A stretch of DNA of 64,000 bases from Patescibacteria group bacterium (GTDB lineage Bacteria; Patescibacteriota; Minisyncoccia; Phycocordibacterales; UBA9973). The first letter of the stretch is position 1. The number at the start of each line of letters is the position of its first letter. The stretch spans positions 83,179-147,178 of the forward strand of contig JBBTUV010000003.1 of NCBI GenBank assembly GCA_038063535.1, given 5' to 3'. The translations under genes and the position numbers were made by a program. This document shows positions 34,689 to 45,934 of this stretch, one piece after another. The notes beneath the pieces were generated by a model that was not told where the DNA came from, made no database searches, and saw nothing but the letters and a program-made list of their open reading frames with translations.

Positions 34689-35061
34689 GGGGATGCAAGG
34701 CATAGACAGAGGGCCGGCTACCTAGATGCATGTCGAGACGGCGGAGCTCGTAAAACACGCCAAAATGTTAATTGCAAAATTGACTTCAAAGCAATCGCCT
34801 TACTTCGGTAATGCGTTTGCTCCGGTTTTCGCGTAAGCCAAGACCGGTGTTCTCTCCATAGACTTCCGATATATGGAAAGGGCATAAAATTATCGGGATA
34901 GTTCCTGCGAGCGTTTCGGCGCTGGAGCAAAACTAAGAAACTCGGTCGGGAAATATTTGGCGCGTTTAAGAATTTTCCGGTCTAAAACAAAAAAGCGCGC
35001 TACACATGTAGACTTTTAGTCAGCAGCTTTCTGCACGGGGGCTCGATTCCCCCCATCTCCA
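34689..35061 (+). ncRNA. ssrA: tmRNA (SsrA)
   Basis: 5' GGGGAUG pairs with 3' CAUCUCC-A to form a tRNA-Ala-like acceptor stem with a G3:U wobble. T-arm GGGGGCUCGAUUCCCCC. Candidate tag ORF ends ...GNAFAPVFA-TAA at ~34834-34836. Lies directly downstream of smpB. Confidence 0.8.
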
Positions 35062-35092
35062 CAAAACGGATTTATTATGATAACCTTAAGCG

Positions 35093-38078: not shown

Positions 38079-38618
38079 ATGGATGTTTATAAAAAAAACT
38101 GGCTAAAGTTTGTTCTCGCAATAATTGCCTGCTTTCTGATTAGAATTATACCATTTCGTCCACCGAATGTGGAACCGATTCTTGCAACCCAGATGCCTTT
38201 TAGTAAGGTCTACGGAGCTTACGTGGGCTTTATATTTGCATTTTTGAGTATTATCTTGTTCGATCTGGCGACCAGCACCTTTGGAGTATGGAGTTTCCTT
38301 ACTTCGACCACCTATGGAGTTCTGGGAATCGCTGGAGCCTACTATCTTAGGAACCGTAAAGCTAACTCTTGGAATTTTGCCAAGTTTGCAATAGTCGGGA
38401 CGCTTTTCTTCGATGCCGTAACCGGCCTCTCTATCGGGCCCCTCTTTTTTAGTCAGCCCTTCTCCGAAGCATTTTTCGGGCAGATCCCGTTCACTCTTTG
38501 GCACCTCCTCGGCAACGTTTCCTTCGCGCTTGTTCTCTCACCAGCCATCTATCGCTATGTAGTTGAGAATAAAAAATTAGAGATATATGCCAAAAGCGAA
38601 AAAATATTTACAACTTAA
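38079..38618 (+). CDS. Multi-pass membrane protein resembling ECF-transporter S components (candidate cobalamin S-component, CbrT/BtuM-like)
   Basis: ~180 aa with 5-6 TM helices typical of S components. First gene of an apparent operon with nrdJ and cobO. Substrate assignment is by context only. Confidence 0.35.
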   Translation: MDVYKKNWLKFVLAIIACFLIRIIPFRPPNVEPILATQMPFSKVYGAYVGFIFAFLSIILFDLATSTFGVWSFLTSTTYGVLGIAGAYYLRNRKANSWNFAKFAIVGTLFFDAVTGLSIGPLFFSQPFSEAFFGQIPFTLWHLLGNVSFALVLSPAIYRYVVENKKLEIYAKSEKIFTT

Positions 38619-40860
38619 AAAAATTCAGAAACGCGACGGCATGATCGTGCCTTTTGACGAGCGCAGGATCGAGCGTGCGGTTTTCCGCGCGATGAACGCC
38701 GCTGGAGAGGGAGGGGAAAAAGAAGCAGAAGCGGCGATGTATAAGGTTTTAGACGCCCTGCTTGTTCTTAAAGAAGAGGAAAAAAATAAGAACTTTATTC
38801 CTTCGGTTGAAAAGATCCAAGATGTGGTGGAGAACGAGTTGATTGCTGCCAATTTTATTCAAACCGCGAAGGCCTACATTTTATATCGCAAGGAGCGCTC
38901 AATCGTGAGGCAGAAAGTCGGTTTTGTCCCGGAGAAAGTGAAAGAGTTGGTGGCTCTAAGCAGAAAATATTTCCGCAACCCTCTGGCAGAGTTTGTTTAC
39001 TATCGCACTTATTCGCGCTGGATTCCGGACGAGGGCCGGCGAGAGACCTGGATCGAGACCGTGAGTCGCTATATGGATTTTATGCGGGAGAGTTTAAACT
39101 CGAAGCTAACTGAGGCGGAATATGGGGAAATCCGGGAGGCGATTTTAAACCAGGAAACGATGCCTTCGATGCGACTCCTCCAATTTGCCGGCCGGGCCGC
39201 TCGTCGGACCAATGTTTGCGCCTATAATTGTTCCTTTATCGCGCCGCGCACTTTTCAGGATTTTGCCGAGATCATGTATATCTCCATGTGTGGCACTGGA
39301 GTTGGTTGGTCGGTGGAAAGTGAAAATATCCAGTCGTTGCCACAGATAAAAAAACAAACTGGCAAAGTTTTGCCCCCCTATATCATCCCAGACAGCAAAG
39401 AAGGCTGGGCGGACGCTTTCGCCTTCGGACTTAAGACCTGGTTTTCCGGAAGTGACGTTACCTTCGACTATTCGCTCATCCGCCCGGCTGGCTCGATTTT
39501 AAAGACGATGGGCGGAAAAAGTTCCGGACCGGAACCGCTCCGGGCGCTGCTTGAATTTTCCCGGGAGCGAATTTTGCGGAGGCAGGGCCGCCGCTTGTCC
39601 AATTTGGATGCGCATGACATCATCTGTAAAATCGGAGAGTGCGTGGTCGCGGGCGGCGTAAGGAGGAGCGCGATGATCTCGCTCTCCGATCTTGATGATG
39701 AAGCAATTCGCGATTCGAAAAAAGGACAATTCTACACAACCGAAGCGCAAAGAATGCTCGCCAATAACTCCGCGGTTTATTCCTCAAAGCCAACCGCCGC
39801 CGAATTCTTGGACGAGTGGGTCGCGCTGGCAAAGTCCGGGTCCGGCGAGAGAGGAATTTTTAATCGCGGTAATCTCTCGAAAACTCTTCCTCCGAGACGT
39901 CTCGCGCAGTGGAAAGACGGGAAATATCCGAGCTGGGGGACCAACCCCTGCGGGGAAATCGTGCTGCAATCGAAGCAATTCTGTAACTTGAGCGAAATTA
40001 TTGCCCGCTCGAATGACACTGAAGAAACCTTGATAAAAAAAATAAGAATCGCCACGATTTTGGGAACTTACCAGGCAACCCTCACCTACTTCCCGTATCT
40101 ATCAGCAGAGTGGAAGAAAAACTGCGAAAAGGAACGTTTACTCGGTGTTTCAATAACCGGCCAATGGGACTCCAAAGCGGTCCGGCATCCGAAAACTCTC
40201 CTGCGTCTACGACAAGTCGCTATTGAAACCAATAAAAAATACGCTAAACGCTTTGGTATTAGTCCGTCCACTTGCATCACTTGCGTGAAGCCTTCTGGAA
40301 ACCTTTCACAGACGGTCAATTCCTCCTCCGGCATGCATCCGCGGCACTCAGAGTATTATATTCGCCGTGTTCGGATTTCGACGACTGATGCTTTGTTTAA
40401 GATGCTTAAAGACCAAGGGGTGCCGTATTTTCCCGAGGTTGGCCAGACCAAAGAAGAAGCGACAACATATGTGTTGGAGTTTCCGGTGAAATCTCCCGAA
40501 GGCGCGATTTTCCGCGACGACTTGACCGCACTAGAGCAGCTTGAACACTGGAAGATCGTGAAAGAAAATTACACAGAGCATAACCCTTCGGTTACGATCT
40601 CGGTCGGTGAGGATGAATGGTTGGCAGTTGGCAACTGGGTTTACGAAAATTGGGACATCGTCGGAGGACTTTCCTTTCTTCCTCGCGAGAACCACGTTTA
40701 TCAGCTCGCTCCTTACGAAGCGATATCAAAGGAGAAGTACGAGGAGATGCTCTCCCATGTAAAAGACCTCGATTTTTCCAAGATCGTGACCTACGAGAAG
40801 GTCGACGAGACGGAAGTAAAAAAAGAATTAGCCTGCGTGGCGGGGGTTTGCGAAGTTTAA
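38587..40860 (+). CDS. nrdJ: Adenosylcobalamin-dependent ribonucleotide reductase, class II, with N-terminal ATP-cone
   Basis: ATP-cone (KIQKRDGMIVPFDERRIERAV). 757-aa RNR ten-stranded barrel region. C-terminal Cys pair (...ELACVAGVCEV). Adjacent cob(I)alamin adenosyltransferase. Confidence 0.75.
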   Translation: MPKAKKYLQLKKIQKRDGMIVPFDERRIERAVFRAMNAAGEGGEKEAEAAMYKVLDALLVLKEEEKNKNFIPSVEKIQDVVENELIAANFIQTAKAYILYRKERSIVRQKVGFVPEKVKELVALSRKYFRNPLAEFVYYRTYSRWIPDEGRRETWIETVSRYMDFMRESLNSKLTEAEYGEIREAILNQETMPSMRLLQFAGRAARRTNVCAYNCSFIAPRTFQDFAEIMYISMCGTGVGWSVESENIQSLPQIKKQTGKVLPPYIIPDSKEGWADAFAFGLKTWFSGSDVTFDYSLIRPAGSILKTMGGKSSGPEPLRALLEFSRERILRRQGRRLSNLDAHDIICKIGECVVAGGVRRSAMISLSDLDDEAIRDSKKGQFYTTEAQRMLANNSAVYSSKPTAAEFLDEWVALAKSGSGERGIFNRGNLSKTLPPRRLAQWKDGKYPSWGTNPCGEIVLQSKQFCNLSEIIARSNDTEETLIKKIRIATILGTYQATLTYFPYLSAEWKKNCEKERLLGVSITGQWDSKAVRHPKTLLRLRQVAIETNKKYAKRFGISPSTCITCVKPSGNLSQTVNSSSGMHPRHSEYYIRRVRISTTDALFKMLKDQGVPYFPEVGQTKEEATTYVLEFPVKSPEGAIFRDDLTALEQLEHWKIVKENYTEHNPSVTISVGEDEWLAVGNWVYENWDIVGGLSFLPRENHVYQLAPYEAISKEKYEEMLSHVKDLDFSKIVTYEKVDETEVKKELACVAGVCEV

Positions 40861-40866
40861 ATTACC

Positions 40867-41391
40867 ATGATGCTGCTTGCTTTTACAGGGAATGGCAAAG
40901 GGAAAACCACGGCGGCGCTCGGGAACGCTCTGCGGCTCCTCGGGGCGGGCAAGCGCGCTCTGATGGTGCAGTTTATCAAAGGGCCGTGGGAATCAGGCGA
41001 GCATAAATCAAGCGCCCGCCTTGAACCGGATCTCAAGATCATAAAAACCGGCAAGGGCTTTGTGGGGATTCTCGGGGACAATTTGCCGATCGAAGAGCAC
41101 CGAGAAGCTGCCGAGGAAGGATTTAAGGTAGCGCGTAAGGAAATTGCCGGGGGCAAATACCATCTCCTTATCTTAGATGAAGTCCATAACGCGATCCGGC
41201 TCGGACTCGTGCCCATTTCTTTTGTGCTCGCATTTCTCGACTATGCCCGCGACAAAGTGGAATATGTTATCACGACCGGCCGAGACGCAGCCAAAGAAAT
41301 TATTGACCGAGCCGATCTGGTGACAGAGATGCGCGACGTGAAACACCCGTTTAAAAAGGGCGTCAAAGCAAAGGTCGGAGTAGATTATTAG
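40867..41391 (+). CDS. cobO: Cob(I)yrinic acid a,c-diamide / cob(I)alamin adenosyltransferase (CobO/CobA/BtuR family)
   Basis: P-loop TGNGKGKTTAALG and QFIKG...LDE motifs characteristic of CobA/BtuR. 174 aa. Confidence 0.85.
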   Translation: MMLLAFTGNGKGKTTAALGNALRLLGAGKRALMVQFIKGPWESGEHKSSARLEPDLKIIKTGKGFVGILGDNLPIEEHREAAEEGFKVARKEIAGGKYHLLILDEVHNAIRLGLVPISFVLAFLDYARDKVEYVITTGRDAAKEIIDRADLVTEMRDVKHPFKKGVKAKVGVDY

Positions 41392-41404
41392 ATTATTAGG
41401 TTTT

Positions 41405-41558
41405 TAACAACTGAAGACGTCTTGCGTTTGGAAGTGAGGTTTAATTCCTCCACTGTGCCGCAACGGTAATCTGCAAAAGCAGTAGTCCGGTCGTTACGTA
41501 AGATGTATCCCGAGCAGGATGTTCGTTCATGAGTCGCCTGCTCTTAGCAGGTTTTTTT
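41405..41558 (+). promoter_or_regulatory. Candidate cobalamin riboswitch with intrinsic terminator expression platform (terminator GCCTGCT-CTT-AGCAGGC + T7 at ~41536-41558)
   Basis: GAGGTTTAATTCCTCCACTGTGCCGCAACGGTAA resembles the conserved cobalamin-aptamer core (GGUGAAAAUCC...CCCGCCACUGU, recalled from memory). The downstream AGCAGGATG...CCTGC is B12-box-like. An alternative anti-terminator pairing GAGCAGG/CCTGCTC is possible. Located between cobO and the DUF4430 gene. Confidence 0.55.
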
Positions 41559-41566
41559 ATTAAAAT

Positions 41567-42454
41567 ATGAAAAAAATAATTTTTGCTTCCATTATCCTTC
41601 TAACTTTTGGCCGGATTGCTTGGGCAGAAGAGGAAATATTGCCTCCTCCACCGGAGGAAGCCGTGGTTGAAGAAGCTCTGCCAGAACCAATTCCCGAACC
41701 GGAAGTAGTCCCCGAAGTCGAGTTTAGTATTCAAGATGGAGATTTTGCTCTCGAGAAAAGTCTCCACCTTCCGGAAGAGGGCAATGTCTCAATAGAGGGG
41801 CATGATGTGGATGCGCGCAGCGTTTTAGCGGTTCTTTATGCTTGGGACGAGGAGAGTAGTGACTTCGAAATTTCCGAGCTCATTTACTACCCATCATTCT
41901 CCGCTTTCTACGTGAAATGCATAACGCTTGAAGAAGAGAAATGCGACTATTGGATGTACAAGGTAAATAGTGAAGCGCCCTCGGTCGGGATGGATAGTTT
42001 CATTCTCGAAGCGGGCGATCAGGTGGAAATTTATTTTGACGACTCCTTCTTCGGTGAGCCGGAGGAAGATCCTCCGCCGGAAGTTGTGGAAGGTCCTCCC
42101 GAGGAAGAAGAAGGACCGCGAATAACGAGTTCAGGAAGCAGAGGGAAGTCGAGGGAGCCCGAAGAACCCAAGGAAGTGCCAACTGAAGAAGTTATCGTGG
42201 CCGCCCCTGCGGCGCCGCCGGTAGTTCCGGCAATTGTGCCTCCGCCGGTTGTATCCAAAGTTGCAAAAGCCGAGCCGGTCCAAGAGACACAGGAGCAAAT
42301 AGCTACAATCCCAGTATTAGAACCTCCGCCGATCGGACTTTCCGCCGCGCCCATCGAGAGTGGAAATTCTCCAAAAGCTCCGATTGTACTCGGCGGGATT
42401 GCCGCACTTCTGGTTTTGATTTTTCTGGGCAAGAGATTTCTAATGAAAAATTAG
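41567..42454 (+). CDS. Secreted/membrane-anchored DUF4430-like protein (putative surface cobalamin-binding protein) with Pro/Glu-rich low-complexity linker
   Basis: Signal peptide MKKIIFASIILLTFGRIAWA. Motif DYWMYKVNSEAPSVGMDSFILEAGDQVEIYF matches the DUF4430 hallmark (WMY.VNG...L..GD.I.W.Y). C-terminal TM anchor. Sits directly downstream of the riboswitch-like leader. Confidence 0.6.
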   Translation: MKKIIFASIILLTFGRIAWAEEEILPPPPEEAVVEEALPEPIPEPEVVPEVEFSIQDGDFALEKSLHLPEEGNVSIEGHDVDARSVLAVLYAWDEESSDFEISELIYYPSFSAFYVKCITLEEEKCDYWMYKVNSEAPSVGMDSFILEAGDQVEIYFDDSFFGEPEEDPPPEVVEGPPEEEEGPRITSSGSRGKSREPEEPKEVPTEEVIVAAPAAPPVVPAIVPPPVVSKVAKAEPVQETQEQIATIPVLEPPPIGLSAAPIESGNSPKAPIVLGGIAALLVLIFLGKRFLMKN

Positions 42455-42488: not shown

Positions 42489-42797
42489 ATGAACGGACTC
42501 AAAATCAAAAGACCTCTTCCCAGAACCGCTTACGAGCGAAACGCGGTGACCTATAAAATTTTGGCGAACCCGAAGCGATTGGAAATTTTAAATCTCCTGT
42601 GCGAGCAGGAGATGCCGGTGGAATCCCTGGTCAAGGAGCTCGGCATTACCAAGGCGAACGTTTCCCAGCACCTCGCGCTCCTCCGCCACGCCGATCTCGT
42701 GACCGTGCGCCGAAACGGCCTAAACGCTTACTACAACATTATAGATCCGCGCATCGTCGAACCCTGCCGAATCCTGCACAAACTTCACTCGAAGTGA
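42489..42797 (+). CDS. ArsR/SmtB-family transcriptional regulator
   Basis: Winged HTH: LANPKRLEILNLL...ESLVKELGITKANVSQHLALLRHADLV. Confidence 0.85.
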   Translation: MNGLKIKRPLPRTAYERNAVTYKILANPKRLEILNLLCEQEMPVESLVKELGITKANVSQHLALLRHADLVTVRRNGLNAYYNIIDPRIVEPCRILHKLHSK

Positions 42798-42818: not shown

Positions 42819-43058
42819 ATGTTGACCGATTTCATACAAAAAAGGCTAAAAAGCGCTAAATATAAAATCTTGAAAGACAGAAGTTATTTCGGGGAAATTA
42901 CTGGGATGAGAGGGGTTTGGGCTAACGCAAGAACTCTCGAGGCATGCAGGAAAGAGCTTCAAGAAGTGCTTGAAGATTGGCTGGTTCTATCTATCAAGCG
43001 CGATAAGAATATTCCCGGCTTCAATTTCCCGAGTGCTCGAATTTTGAGAGATGCCTAG
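42819..43058 (+). CDS. hicB: HicB-like antitoxin (UPF0150 family)
   Basis: YFGEITGMRGVWANARTLEACRKELQEVLEDWL matches the HicB N-domain pattern (GE.P.L.GC.A.G.T.EEA....EA...W). Confidence 0.65.
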   Translation: MLTDFIQKRLKSAKYKILKDRSYFGEITGMRGVWANARTLEACRKELQEVLEDWLVLSIKRDKNIPGFNFPSARILRDA

Positions 43059-43263
43059 GGCAGTCTCAGCCAGGAAGCTTATCGAAAACCTCCGACTCTT
43101 TGGTTTTACCGGCCCGTATTCGGGAGGCAGGCACATGTTCATGATCAAAGGAAATTTGAAACTGCGAATCCCTAATCCCCACCACGGCGATATTTCTAAG
43201 AGCTTGCTTTCCGAGATCCTTCGTCAGGCCGGAATTTCCGCAAGCGAGTGGAATAAGTTATAA
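43051..43263 (+). CDS. hicA: HicA-like mRNA interferase toxin (YcfA family)
   Basis: KLIENLRLFGFTGPYSGGRHMFM...IPNPHHGDISKSLLSEILRQAGIS matches HicA (K.L...GW...R..GSH....HP......V.P.H.....GT...I.KQAG). Gene order is antitoxin-first. Confidence 0.65.
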   Translation: MPRAVSARKLIENLRLFGFTGPYSGGRHMFMIKGNLKLRIPNPHHGDISKSLLSEILRQAGISASEWNKL

Positions 43264-43276
43264 TAAAAGTTTTTTC

Positions 43277-43305
43277 TTGACTTTTTAACTCAAAAGGTGT
43301 ATAAT
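43277..43305 (+). promoter_or_regulatory. Near-consensus sigma70 promoter TTGACT-17 bp-TATAAT upstream of the DGR target gene
   Basis: Seen directly. A ~150-nt leader follows before the SD AAGGAGA and the ATG at 43456. Confidence 0.6.
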
Positions 43306-43455: not shown

Positions 43456-44097
43456 ATGTCTACCCAGAACATGCCGGAAGACGAAGTCGAACTTGCGACC
43501 GATGAACAACTCGGTCATATCCTCGACATGTGGCGCCGCCGGCTGAGGGGCCGCAAGCTCACCAACCCCGAGGCGCAGGCCATCATCACCAACGGCGGGT
43601 TCTATCTGCCGGTGATGGACGAGGCCGCTGATGTGCTCGTGGACCGCGTTCGTTCGGAAATCTCGAACACGATCGTTGTTTATCTGAACAACATCAAGCG
43701 CGGACAGACTGTTGAGCAGCTTCTCGATGCGACGGGGCGCAGGCAGTACACGGAGAAGTCTTCCGTCGCCACCATGCCACTCGTCGGCAACGGCGGCCCA
43801 CTCTCGGGTGAGTTCGTCTGGTTCAAGTCAGACGGTGGATTGTCTGACGCCGGAGTGGAGGAGGAGCGTGTCAGGCGCGGTCTCGTCCGCGATCTAGAGA
43901 TGCAGCTCCAGTACAACGCGGAGCACCCGGAGTTCGCCGATACGCACCCAAACGGCGATAGTTGGCCCGCAGACGACAAGGGCAACTACAATTTCGTCGG
44001 CCTCGGCCGGTGGGGCGGCGGGCGTGGGGTCGTTGTGGGCCGCGGCGGCGGCGGCGGGTGGGGTGCTGGCGACTGGTTCGGGGGCCGCCGCAAGTAG
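43456..44097 (+). CDS. DGR target (variable) protein, 213 aa, Gly-rich C-terminal variable region. ATG with AAGGAGA SD; ORF-track GTG at 43393 is probably an extension.
   Basis: The C-terminal 107 nt (VR) are a near-copy of the downstream TR, differing only at TR adenines. GC-rich relative to neighbours. No signal peptide. Confidence 0.85.
   Translation: MSTQNMPEDEVELATDEQLGHILDMWRRRLRGRKLTNPEAQAIITNGGFYLPVMDEAADVLVDRVRSEISNTIVVYLNNIKRGQTVEQLLDATGRRQYTEKSSVATMPLVGNGGPLSGEFVWFKSDGGLSDAGVEEERVRRGLVRDLEMQLQYNAEHPEFADTHPNGDSWPADDKGNYNFVGLGRWGGGRGVVVGRGGGGGWGAGDWFGGRRK
43987..44093 (+). repeat. DGR variable repeat (VR)
   Basis: 107 bp aligned to TR 44436-44542 without gaps. 25 mismatches, all at TR adenines (24 read G in VR, 1 reads T). 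The 3' 21 nt CTGGTTCGGGGGCCGCCGCAA are identical (IMH-like). Confidence 0.9.
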
Positions 44098-44164: not shown

Positions 44165-44205
44165 GGCTCCGCCGTATACCACGTGCGGAGCCGCTTGTTT
44201 TTATA
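44165..44205 (+). terminator. Hairpin GGCTCCGC-(12 nt)-GCGGAGCC + TTGTTTTT downstream of the target gene (terminator; could double as a DGR homing-enhancing hairpin)
   Basis: Perfect 8-bp inverted repeat followed by a T-rich run, seen directly. Confidence 0.5.
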
Positions 44206-44435
44206 TATAATCAAATTGGTAGTAGGTGAATACGCGGGCGATCACGGTTTCCCGCTACCGAACCCAGTACCCATACATCGAGAGTGCTTGTGACCACGTG
44301 TTTCGGGCAGAGTGATGTATGCAGACACTTCAACAAAAAAAGAAGTTACTTGGTATGAAATGCTAGGGCATTGCGATGCCGAATACGATACAACCTCGAG
44401 AGTATTCGAAGGGTGGTGGCACAGAAGGCATTTCA

Positions 44436-44542
44436 TACAATTTCGTCAACCTCAACCAGTGGAACGACGAGCGTAAGGTCAATGTGAACCGCAGCAACGG
44501 CAACAGGTGGAATGCTAGCAACTGGTTCGGGGGCCGCCGCAA
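44436..44542 (+). repeat. DGR template repeat (TR), rich in AAC/AAT codons
   Basis: Invariant copy of the VR with A at every variable position. Its conceptual translation (ORF 44376-44564) is Asn-rich, as is typical of TRs. Confidence 0.9.
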
Positions 44543-44560
44543 CCCACTTCTTTCTCTCCT

Positions 44561-44962
44561 TTAACCGGGAGAGTTTTGTTTTGCAAGCTGTGCAGTTAGT
44601 TGTCCTTGCCATCCTCCGAGCATTTTGCCAACTTCTTCAATTTTCTCTGACAAAACAATATATTTTTTGTTGTCGAATGATTTAGTTTCCCACAATACCA
44701 TCAAAAGTATTTTTATCGTGTCAACTTTCCTCCTGGCCAAGCGAACCCAAGGCAGCTTCTCTTCTTTTGATAAAAAAGTGGCAATCGAAATTGCCTCAAT
44801 TATTTCTACAAACAAGCAATCAATTCTTTCCCCGAGCGAATATCGATGGATTTTTGCTAAAATGTTATGATAGCTATGCCAGAGAATATAGACACTTTTC
44901 AACTTGCCAAGAACCGGCAAAATCGAAGCGGGGGGGGGCTTTGTAGTCATAAATTTCATCAT
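44561..44962 (-). CDS. avd: Avd-like accessory variability determinant (four-helix-bundle / 23S rRNA IVS protein family), encoded on the strand opposite to TR and RT
   Basis: C-terminal ...LSEKIEEVGKMLGGWQGQL resembles Bordetella phage Avd ...IAEVGRILGSWIARV and TIGR02436-type four-helix-bundle proteins. Its reverse-strand coding was verified by hand translation. Confidence 0.65.
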   Translation of the reverse strand: MMKFMTTKPPPASILPVLGKLKSVYILWHSYHNILAKIHRYSLGERIDCLFVEIIEAISIATFLSKEEKLPWVRLARRKVDTIKILLMVLWETKSFDNKKYIVLSEKIEEVGKMLGGWQGQLTAQLAKQNSPG

Positions 44963-45934
44963 ATCATTTCTCTCGAAAACTTGCTGTTAGCGTGGCAAGA
45001 ATTTCTAGTCGGCAAAAAATCCCGGAAAGACGTGCAGGAATTCGAGAGGAATCTGATGGAGAACATAATTTCTTTACATCAAGATCTCGCCAACAAAACA
45101 TACAGGCATGGAAGTTATCACGCCTTCAACATCTCCGATCCCAAGCCCAGAAACATCCACAAAGCAAACGTTCGAGACAGATTGCTCCATCATGCCATCT
45201 ATCGAGTGCTGTACCCATATTTCGACCCAAAATTCATTACCGATTCATATTCTTGCAGGTTGAATAAAGGCACGCATAGGGCCATGAACAGATTCAGGGA
45301 ATTCGCATATAAAGTTTCGAAGAACAACATGCGAACCTGCTGGATTCTCAAATGCGACATCACGAAATTCTTCGCAAGCATCGATCATGATATGTTGAAG
45401 AAGATTTTAGCAAAACATATCGAGGACAGAGATATTCTTCGATTTTTAGGAGGGGTGATAGATAGTTTTCACACTCCCCAAGGTGTTTCCTTGGGGAAGG
45501 GGTTGCCACTTGGGAATTTAACTTCCCAACTCCTAGTGAATGTGTATATGAACGAGTTTGATCAATTTATGAAGCATAGGCTCAAGGTTAAATATTACGT
45601 CCGCTACGCAGACGACTTTGTGATATTAAGTGAAGGCAGAAACCAACTTATTACATTAAGGCGATATATCGCCATTTTCCTGAAAGAAGAATTGAAACTG
45701 GAACTGCCCCCTAACAAGATTTTTGTCAAAACATCAGCTTCCGGGATAGATTTCTTGGGCTGGGTGCATTTCCCGGAGCATAGAGTGCTGAGAACTACAA
45801 CAAAAAGGAGAATGCTAAAAAATTTAAAAGCAAATTATGAGAACGAAACCCTGCAATCTTATCTGGGGATGCTCTCGCACGGGAATACTCAACTTACTCA
45901 AAATGAAATTCGCCAGCTCGCTCACGCACTCTAG
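44867..45934 (+). CDS. DGR reverse transcriptase
   Basis: RT motifs: DPKPRNIHKA...DRLLHHAIYRVL (domains 1-2), LPLGNLTSQLL (DGR-specific [I/L]GxxxSQ), YVRYADDFVIL (YxDD box). 355 aa. Its 5' ~95 nt overlap avd antisense. Confidence 0.9.
   Translation: MIAMPENIDTFQLAKNRQNRSGGGLCSHKFHHIISLENLLLAWQEFLVGKKSRKDVQEFERNLMENIISLHQDLANKTYRHGSYHAFNISDPKPRNIHKANVRDRLLHHAIYRVLYPYFDPKFITDSYSCRLNKGTHRAMNRFREFAYKVSKNNMRTCWILKCDITKFFASIDHDMLKKILAKHIEDRDILRFLGGVIDSFHTPQGVSLGKGLPLGNLTSQLLVNVYMNEFDQFMKHRLKVKYYVRYADDFVILSEGRNQLITLRRYIAIFLKEELKLELPPNKIFVKTSASGIDFLGWVHFPEHRVLRTTTKRRMLKNLKANYENETLQSYLGMLSHGNTQLTQNEIRQLAHAL

Follow-up and report, generated by a model that had tools for sequence, protein, structure and literature searches.

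In a diversity-generating retroelement (DGR), the adenines of a template region (TR) are expected to be replaced with any nucleotide when the sequence is written into a variable region (VR). Why, then, would a VR carry G at all but one of its substituted sites? The question is raised by a DGR of a Patescibacteria group bacterium (GenBank assembly GCA_038063535.1, contig JBBTUV010000003.1, positions 83,179 to 147,178), studied here in a window of 64,000 nucleotides whose own numbering is used throughout. The answer that we favour, while giving it somewhat less than an even chance, is that one atypical, C-inserting retrohoming event took place and that the resulting allele was then fixed. Ranked behind it, in falling order of probability, are selection for glycine, a variant reverse transcriptase (RT), an inosine-bearing template and, last, an assembly artefact.

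A variable region rewritten almost wholly to G

A repeat search of the window returned a direct repeat of 107 nt, at 43987-44093 and 44436-44542, with 77% identity. Aligned without gaps, the two copies differ at 25 positions, all 25 of them adenines in the TR; 24 read G in the VR and one reads T (TR 44482, VR 44033), while no difference falls at a non-A position of the 107 nt. The original prediction, made by a model from the letters alone, had reported 24 G and one T among the 25 substituted sites, had put the substituted share of TR adenines at about 80%, and had identified the repeats as the VR and TR of a DGR. The alignment bears out each of these statements, with 25 of the 31 TR adenines substituted (81%) and an intact element around the pair. 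The six adenines that were kept (19%) are 44437, 44439 and 44440 at the 5′ edge, 44521, and the pair 44541-2 at the 3′ end. Between 44448 and 44520 every adenine was changed (25/25), 96% of them to G. The A-rich copy is the conserved one, because near-identical TRs occur in the related loci L084, L085 and L090.

The VR makes up the last 36 codons of the target open reading frame (ORF), the translation of which ends ...GLGRWGGGRGVVVGRGGGGGWGAGDWFGGRRK. Its final stretch, ...NYNFVGLGRWGGGRGVVVGRGGGGGWGAGDWFGGRRK, agrees with the tail of glycine runs that had been described from the sequence. The codon outcomes in the VR also include Arg (CAG>CGG), Val (AAT>GTT) and Asp (AAC>GAC). The GC content of the VR is 78%, compared with 55% for the TR and 49% for the window, and the all-G state creates seven G-runs in the VR, among them a canonical G-quadruplex-type motif on the sense strand (44012-44039), where the TR has a single G-run.

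The skew against the spectrum of related elements

How far the allele departs from ordinary DGR behavior can be judged from its relatives. The 160 nearest RT loci (59–74% RT identity; loci numbered L001-L170) come overwhelmingly from Patescibacteria metagenome-assembled genomes. Together with L084, L085 and L090, which were reached through target homologues, they gave 96 clean TR/VR pairs. Pooled over these pairs, 962 substitutions were A>G (57%), 448 were A>T (26%) and 290 were A>C (17%), and inside the mutated span 38% of adenines were kept and 35% had become G. The G share of individual alleles among the relatives ranged from 0.10 to 0.96, with a median of 0.56 and a 95th percentile of 0.80, and was significantly over-dispersed. 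At 0.96, the window allele is at the upper extreme for the clade. The chance of at least 24 G among 25 substitutions is 1.3e-5 by a binomial with the clade mean (0.566) and 0.0023 by a fitted beta-binomial; beta-binomial models also put the substitution of at least 25 of 26 adenines at 0.0007 and the occurrence of at least 24 G in 26 adenines at 1.4e-5.

Comparison with the VR states of related DGRs had been proposed in the original prediction, and when made on the 96 pairs it places the window allele as an extreme outlier. Close behind is L065, nearly as extreme with 23 G, 1 T and 5 adenines kept, and with a target of a different family; L145 has 18 G and 2 T. The magnitude of the skew is a genuine outlier, seen in a single allele, and its direction is ordinary for the clade. 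The earlier judgment that such a skew lies beyond chance therefore stands when measured against the related pairs, but the null on which it was based, unbiased replacement of A by any nucleotide, was too strict, A>G being the usual majority outcome.

Published work points in the same direction. The DiGReF survey of 155 DGRs found G to be the commonest substitution and C the rarest, with unchanged adenines ranging from 13 to 79% and with VRs of one DGR that can differ drastically (PMC3521204). When the DGR of Bordetella phage BPP-1 was reconstituted in E. coli, its RT (bRT) mostly misinserted C, giving A>G (bioRxiv 10.1101/2025.08.18.670894). The 96 relatives resemble these published cases of A>G preference (PMC3521204; bioRxiv 10.1101/2025.08.18.670894) in the order G > T > C, in the variation from VR to VR and in the dependence on context. 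A near-exclusive G allele is described in neither of the two reports.

Two broader causes were tried and rejected. Sequence context in the TR would not suffice, since the closest target relatives, L084, L085 and L090 (74–81% identity), have near-identical TRs and balanced spectra (4G/6T/2C, 6G/7T/2C and 11G/2T/4C), and a pooled model that takes context into account predicts only 9.1 G where 24 were observed. A community-wide chemical cause was set aside since other DGRs from the same groundwater well have ordinary spectra (L104, 7G/6T/5C; L141, 12G/2T/3C; L150, 13G/3T/3C) and no C>T change is seen between VR and TR.

The 96 pairs also show effects of context in their own right. A>C is nearly absent (~0–1%) where the 3′ neighbor is C or G (AAC, GAC, TAC and CAG) and reaches 17–30% where it is A (CAA, GAA and TAA). 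In addition, TGY (Cys) outcomes at AAY codons are depleted four-fold, with 21 observed vs ~85 expected. Both patterns could reflect a context preference of the RT, selection, or the two combined. The context rules published for BPP-1 differ from those of the 96 relatives.

Reality and dominance of the allele

A VR assembled from a metagenome might itself be at fault, through consensus collapse, as the original prediction had suggested, or through a chimeric path across a heterogeneous VR population. The metagenomic origin of the sequence lends itself to this explanation, and majority calling would lean toward G as the commonest substituted base. At the frequencies of the clade (A kept 38%, G 35%), however, a per-site majority would call A about as often as G. 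Moreover, the identical 213-aa target protein, VR included, occurs on 13 contigs, drawn from replicate assemblies of Hainich groundwater well H41 and from an independent Logan assembly of ERR3858136. These cover several samples, different filter fractions, replicates and two or more assembly pipelines. Contig L081 (ERZ1292624; 291,722 nt, coverage 57) holds the gene with flanks on both sides, the assembly being unbroken at the VR, while an 8.6-kb contig at x4 (ERZ1292628) is also among the 13 carriers. A further contig beyond these, L091 at x3, has identical VR DNA, and no consensus effect is possible at depths of x4 and x3. Where contig DNA was compared with the window, it was 100% identical over 6 kb, the end of contig L083 excepted.

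Searches at the protein level gave the same picture. Among ~5.8 billion protein clusters no other VR allele was found, the next match being 81% identical, and the collection had no truncated fragments of the target, such as contig breaks at a heterogeneous VR should leave behind. Where several VR alleles per population might be looked for, the assemblies and the protein collection hold one, at the level of assembly. All of this is evidence against consensus collapse, and we consider an artefact extremely improbable. The all-G VR is a real allele that is dominant in the sampled population, as judged from assemblies of one well.

Other members of the clade behave differently. Loci with 100% identical RTs were found to carry different VR alleles (L038 vs L140; L050 vs L163 vs L164), which is direct evidence that related Patescibacteria DGRs diversify in nature, unlike the single allele of the window element.

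The exceptional contig L083 (ERZ1292628; 8560 nt) equals the window up to 45162, after which its last ~180 nt, within the RT gene, show 69 differences. Its end is probably a chimeric join between the RT genes of different Patescibacteria genomes, and it calls for caution in DGR analyses on short metagenomic contigs. Use of this divergence as a clock for the age of the allele was rejected, as all 69 differences lie at the contig end, from 45163 onward.

A proposed single atypical event followed by fixation

The allele being real, the route to it that we favor is a single event. The RT and its partner Avd (accessory variability determinant) would have placed C opposite practically every TR adenine during synthesis of complementary DNA (cDNA), and retrohoming would have written the product into the VR. 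C opposite A is the favored error of the clade and of DGR RTs generally, and the direction of the skew is normal in that light. Its extreme degree most likely belongs to one atypical event, alleles written by one and the same RT differing widely in G share from one event to the next. Conditions during that event may have disfavored incorporation of T and favored C, for example through the nucleotide pool. Work with the phage system has shown that bRT-Avd can finish cDNA synthesis when TTP is absent, with a misincorporation at each adenine (PMC6182149). Given this capacity and the preference for misinserting C, the all-G pattern could arise from a nucleotide pool short of T and rich in C. In a lineage with a DGR that would rarely fire, the allele may then have been fixed through drift, hitch-hiking or tolerance. 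A clean and fairly recent write fits the pair, as VR and TR show no non-A differences. The monomorphic VR likewise fits the lower-than-average activity that has been reported for the DGRs of Patescibacteria (clade 2; PMC8144416).

Several points weigh against this account. Even an over-dispersed null leaves P at ~1e-5 for 24 G among 26 adenines, and for that reason the notion of "just an extreme draw" is strained and a special condition must be assumed. A simple model based on the dCTP/dTTP ratio predicts that the substituted fraction and the G share should be correlated, and across loci they are not (Spearman 0.005). Shortage of TTP alone accounts for complete substitution but not for the exclusivity of G. 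Inactivity of the element is not to be assumed either, because RT and avd are both in frame through a tract of nine G residues (G9) at their junction, an apparent ON state. Lastly, all samples with the allele come from one aquifer well, and the evidence for fixation is that of one population only.

Should the allele prove to be an extreme draw that was then fixed, it would serve as a calibration point for natural DGRs. Within one RT clade, the G share of natural alleles runs from as little as 0.10 up to 0.96, and a single assembled VR spectrum consequently says little about the enzyme.

The reverse transcriptase as a candidate cause

A second means of producing the skew would be an RT that prefers to insert C opposite template A, as the original prediction had proposed. 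The preference itself holds for the whole clade (57% A>G) and for DGRs generally. That it is special to this RT is made doubtful by the balanced spectra of close relatives and by L065, the sole hint in its favor being the residue at position 281. This RT has Pro there, where His is invariant in the 160 relatives, three residues before an invariant Lys. Residue 281 lies in what we take to be the motif 6/D region, a region that influences nucleotide selection in other RTs. A lineage-specific H281P enzyme pairing template A almost exclusively with dCTP would rewrite the VR deterministically to the same G-state. Such a writer would cover both the near-complete substitution and the monomorphic VR, despite an RT and avd that are in frame.

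Against this, 18 of 161 RTs (11%) also have a unique residue at an otherwise invariant position, and the RT of L065, where 23 G and 1 T were reached, has no residue out of the ordinary. A deterministic enzyme would still have to account for the one A>T and the one retained A. Moreover, R74 and I181 of bRT tune adenine mutagenesis (PMC7826257), and no change was found at their equivalents in the window RT (R in PRNIH, L in LGNLTSQ), which equal the clade consensus. The G share is also not inherited along the RT tree. It shows a Spearman coefficient of 0.09 with that of the nearest RT neighbor, and it differs between identical RTs (0.84 vs 0.63) and between 96%-identical RTs (0.80 vs 0.40). These figures speak against a G share that is fixed for an RT lineage. 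Taken together, H281P appears an improbable cause.

General decay of the RT was also considered and rejected. The enzyme departs from consensus at 4 of 153 conserved positions, vs a median of 5 in relatives. Besides H281P, it departs from strong consensus in L193F, I287V and T155M.

An edited template as a possible cause

A third means by which the VR could have been driven to G is hyper-deamination of the TR RNA (A to inosine) before reverse transcription, with the RT then reading the inosines faithfully as G. On hypoxanthine templates, bRT-Avd inserts C in 96–97% of cases and A for the rest (PMC7826257). The VR predicted from these values, with ~96% G and an occasional T, equals the observed 24 G and 1 T and the near-complete conversion, and a single cause would explain both anomalies. 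With 25 sites only, however, the numerical match to 96% weighs little. To our knowledge, no bacterial enzyme hyper-edits a whole RNA segment, and the process would thus be without known bacterial precedent. A local deaminase gene was rejected, as a motif scan of all window ORFs returned no CDA-type deaminase motif. Chemical deamination should also give C>T changes, none of which are seen, and L104, L141 and L150 retain ordinary spectra in the same well. The predicted outcome is the same as that of hypoxanthine copying by bRT-Avd or of A-to-I editing, but this is a resemblance only, the motif scan of the window showing no editing enzyme. We regard an inosine template as very unlikely.

Either H281P or an inosine-bearing TR RNA would make the element a deterministic A-to-G rewriter rather than a diversifier. 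Such a DGR might toggle its target between defined states (e.g., an Asn-rich-derived vs a Gly-rich surface), perhaps gated by the poly-G tract between avd and RT, though we hold this to be a long shot. A deterministic cause would mean that the output of a DGR can be shifted from random change to programmed recoding. This would bear on how DGR RTs choose nucleotides and on their use as tools for targeted mutagenesis.

Possible selection for glycine

A fourth possibility concerns the protein and not the copying reaction. The original prediction had suggested that a Gly-rich "parked" state might be selected; a featureless or null ligand-binding surface would be favored, and the all-Gly variant would then have swept. 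No other allele was seen in the population, and two DGRs with unrelated target families, those of the window and of L065, are both Gly-rich. The VR of L065 even has a non-adenine T>G change that converts Trp to Gly. Many alleles of the L065 target family are also rich in Gly and Asp, in a list that is biased by being ranked on similarity to a Gly-rich query. Nevertheless, the 923 AAY codons of the relatives show no enrichment of GGY, with 105 observed against 107 expected from marginals and 116 ± 6 from within-locus permutation. The regularity of the window allele is also at the level of nucleotides and not of amino acids, given its Arg, Val and Asp outcomes, and countless other alleles could give a null phenotype as well. 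At the per-site frequencies of the clade, the exact allele would arise at ~1e-12 per event and would rarely be available unless the process were already skewed; selection alone is therefore an unlikely source. With the second Gly-rich state in another target family and the Trp>Gly change of L065, selection may still have contributed. The suggestion of a parked state accordingly keeps some life, without the Gly excess at AAY codons of relatives that might have accompanied it, and we judge it unlikely overall.

The L065 target (716-1351) belongs to a very large family, with 2055 matches, the best 120 of which (P0018-P0137) are 81–96% identical outside the VR. The family extends over several Patescibacteria groups (Uhrbacteria, Wolfebacteria, Harrisonbacteria, Giovannonibacteria and others), and the VR tail differs in each member. 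Conservation of the L065 target is unusually strong for a protein without an assigned function. Use of the 120 homologues as an unbiased sample of alleles was rejected, as they were ranked by similarity to the Gly-rich query and their TRs differ between lineages.

A poly-G tract at the avd/RT junction

The G9 tract mentioned above is the only G/C homopolymer of at least 7 nt in the window. A G tract of 6–14 nt (mostly 8–11) is found at this position in 90 of 97 related loci, and 84 of the 87 G/C runs of at least 8 nt in 650 kb of related loci fall at the avd/RT junction. Of 15 groups of loci that share identical 40-nt flanks, 5 show a length difference of ±1, and in the population of the window itself both G9 and, in L091, G8 occur. 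In all 90 loci the avd frame stays open between the tract and the core, with a conserved LLPVLxK peptide abutting the tract, and in 33 of the 90 no start codon lies between the tract and the avd core. An open ATG is found beyond the tract in every locus, but it is in frame in only 31 of 90. In 64 of 90 loci the RT starts just downstream of the tract, while in the window RT and avd both read through it in frame.

Poly-G/C homopolymer contingency loci underlie phase variation in Neisseria, Campylobacter and Bordetella. The junction shares their marks of a conserved tract that varies in length between close strains and sets the reading frame: a G/C run of the same 6–14 nt in or near the 5′ coding region, differing by ±1 between near-identical strains and leaving only a third of loci in frame. 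It differs from them in that the tract lies in avd, an accessory gene of a retroelement, where it overlaps the beginning of the RT on the opposing strand. Slippage during transcription would be an alternative to phase variation. From its sequence, the tract looks like a candidate for a gate that works by phase variation or slippage; it would act on Avd, and in some loci also on the RT, and through them on mutagenesis. No report linking DGRs with homopolymer tracts was found in the searchable literature, the main paper on Patescibacteria DGRs lying outside that search. A gate of this kind could explain why Patescibacteria DGRs frequently look inactive in metagenomes and would let hypermutation be turned on and off by simple genetic means.

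Anatomy of the locus and its likeness to known elements

The locus is an intact, complete DGR of the Patescibacteria type, comprising target, VR, TR, avd on the opposite strand, and RT (Table 1). The target protein has the C-type-lectin-like fold (C-type-lectin or Ig-like folds being those of DGR targets) that presents variable residues. Its AlphaFold model is confident (pLDDT 90), and no Pfam domain was found in it. The 20-mer at the 3′ end of the VR occurs exactly twice in the window, where 0.01 copies are expected, and the flanks diverge past 44093 and 44542. A role as the initiation-of-mutagenic-homing (IMH) site is suggested by analogy with BPP-1. Further VRs in the window were ruled out by the same count. 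The TR lies outside the target gene, 449 nt downstream of the VR and 325 nt before the RT ORF.

Table 1. Features of the DGR locus, in window coordinates
Feature	Position	Strand	Remarks
Promoter-like site	43277..43305	+	TTGACT-17-TATAAT, 11/12 consensus matches; upstream of target gene; putative function
DGR target gene	43456..44097	+	213 aa; N-terminal helical part, then C-terminal C-type-lectin-like domain
VR	43987..44093	+	107 nt; 25 mismatches to TR, all at TR adenines
Substituted span of VR	43999..44071	+	24 A>G and 1 A>T; seven G-runs
Invariant GC-rich 3′ end	44074..44093	+	TGGTTCGGGGGCCGCCGCAA; exact in VR and TR; IMH-like boundary
Hairpin, then T-run	44165..44192	+	GGCTCCGC-(12 nt)-GCGGAGCC; ~70 nt downstream of VR 3′ boundary
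TR	44436..44542	+	AAY-codon-rich; 31 A; from repeat pair
Terminator-like hairpin and T-run	44552..44583 (hairpin to 44573)	+	TTTTGTTTTG; from hairpin scan; starts 10 nt after TR
avd	44561..44962	-	accessory variability determinant; strand opposite to TR and RT
DGR RT	44867..45934	+	355 aa; Pfam RVT_1 E=9e-25; PRNIH, LGNLTSQ and YADD intact
Poly-G (G9) tract	44930..44938	.	overlap of RT and avd 5′ ends, head to head
RT codon 281	45707..45709	+	Pro; His in 160/160 relatives (motif LxLHPxK)

Two hairpins follow the repeats. The first, read directly from the sequence because the hairpin scan omits loops of more than 8 nt, is probably the terminator of the target gene. The second, just after the TR, holds the avd stop codon (44561-44563) in its loop; its placement suggests a short TR transcript and one hairpin common to the converging TR and avd transcripts. 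The Rfam scan gave no match in the DGR region, its only matches in the window being a transfer-messenger RNA (tmRNA), two tRNAs and an adenosylcobalamin (AdoCbl) riboswitch, and the RNA fold of 44200-44600 is not more stable than shuffled sequences (z = -1.1).

The avd product matches Pfam bAvd with E=1.1e-8 and 35.9 bits, below the 40-bit cutoff, and bAvd is also listed in the precomputed gene calls. Its ORF overlaps that of the RT by 96 nt at their 5′ ends. The RT motifs LGNLTSQ (residues 215-221) and YADD (247-250) are conserved in 158–160 of the 160 relatives. The best solved RT relative is chain 8ub7_A, labeled only "Reverse transcriptase" (E=1e-39); we take it to be the bRT of Bordetella phage BPP-1, the numbering of which fits R74 and I181 of PMC7826257.

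Like the BPP-1 DGR (mtd VR, TR, avd and brt), the element shows adenine-specific transfer from TR to VR, with the VR at the 3′ end of a target of C-type-lectin fold. It also shares the GC-rich invariant 3′ boundary, an RT with [I/V/L]GxxxSQ, an Avd partner, and C as the misinsertion favored in vivo. The arrangement differs, as BPP-1 has avd, TR and brt on one strand, whereas here avd is encoded on the other strand, divergently from the RT, a terminator-like hairpin stands directly after the TR, and a poly-G tract occupies the avd/RT junction. The outcome differs as well: in BPP-1 ~30–50% of adenines change per event, with a mixed spectrum, whereas here all adenines of 44448-44520 were changed, 96% of them to G.

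Closer kin are the DGRs of Patescibacteria (candidate phyla radiation), which form clade 2 of Roux et al. 2021 (PMC8144416). The window element shares with them its RT (59–74% identical to the 160 loci) and, as reported there, a small target without a Pfam domain. A minus-strand avd homologue is present in all 90 of 90 related Patescibacteria DGRs, and the gene order is kept in all 90. From other members of the clade it differs in the G share of its allele (0.96 vs a median of 0.56) and in the unique H281P of its RT. The element is otherwise an ordinary member of the Patescibacteria DGRs, and the direction of its skew is an already known property.

Neighboring genes

Directly upstream of the DGR target lies a toxin-antitoxin pair of HicB-like (UPF0150) and HicA proteins (42819-43263), preceded by an ArsR-family regulator (42489-42797). 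Farther upstream is a cobalamin-related cluster (38587-42454) with a ribonucleotide reductase, a CobA/CobO/BtuR-family protein, the AdoCbl riboswitch (41403-41546) and a DUF4430 protein. The reductase has an ATP-cone and a weak match to the class II (RNR-II) insertion domain. The tmRNA is located at 34689-35064.

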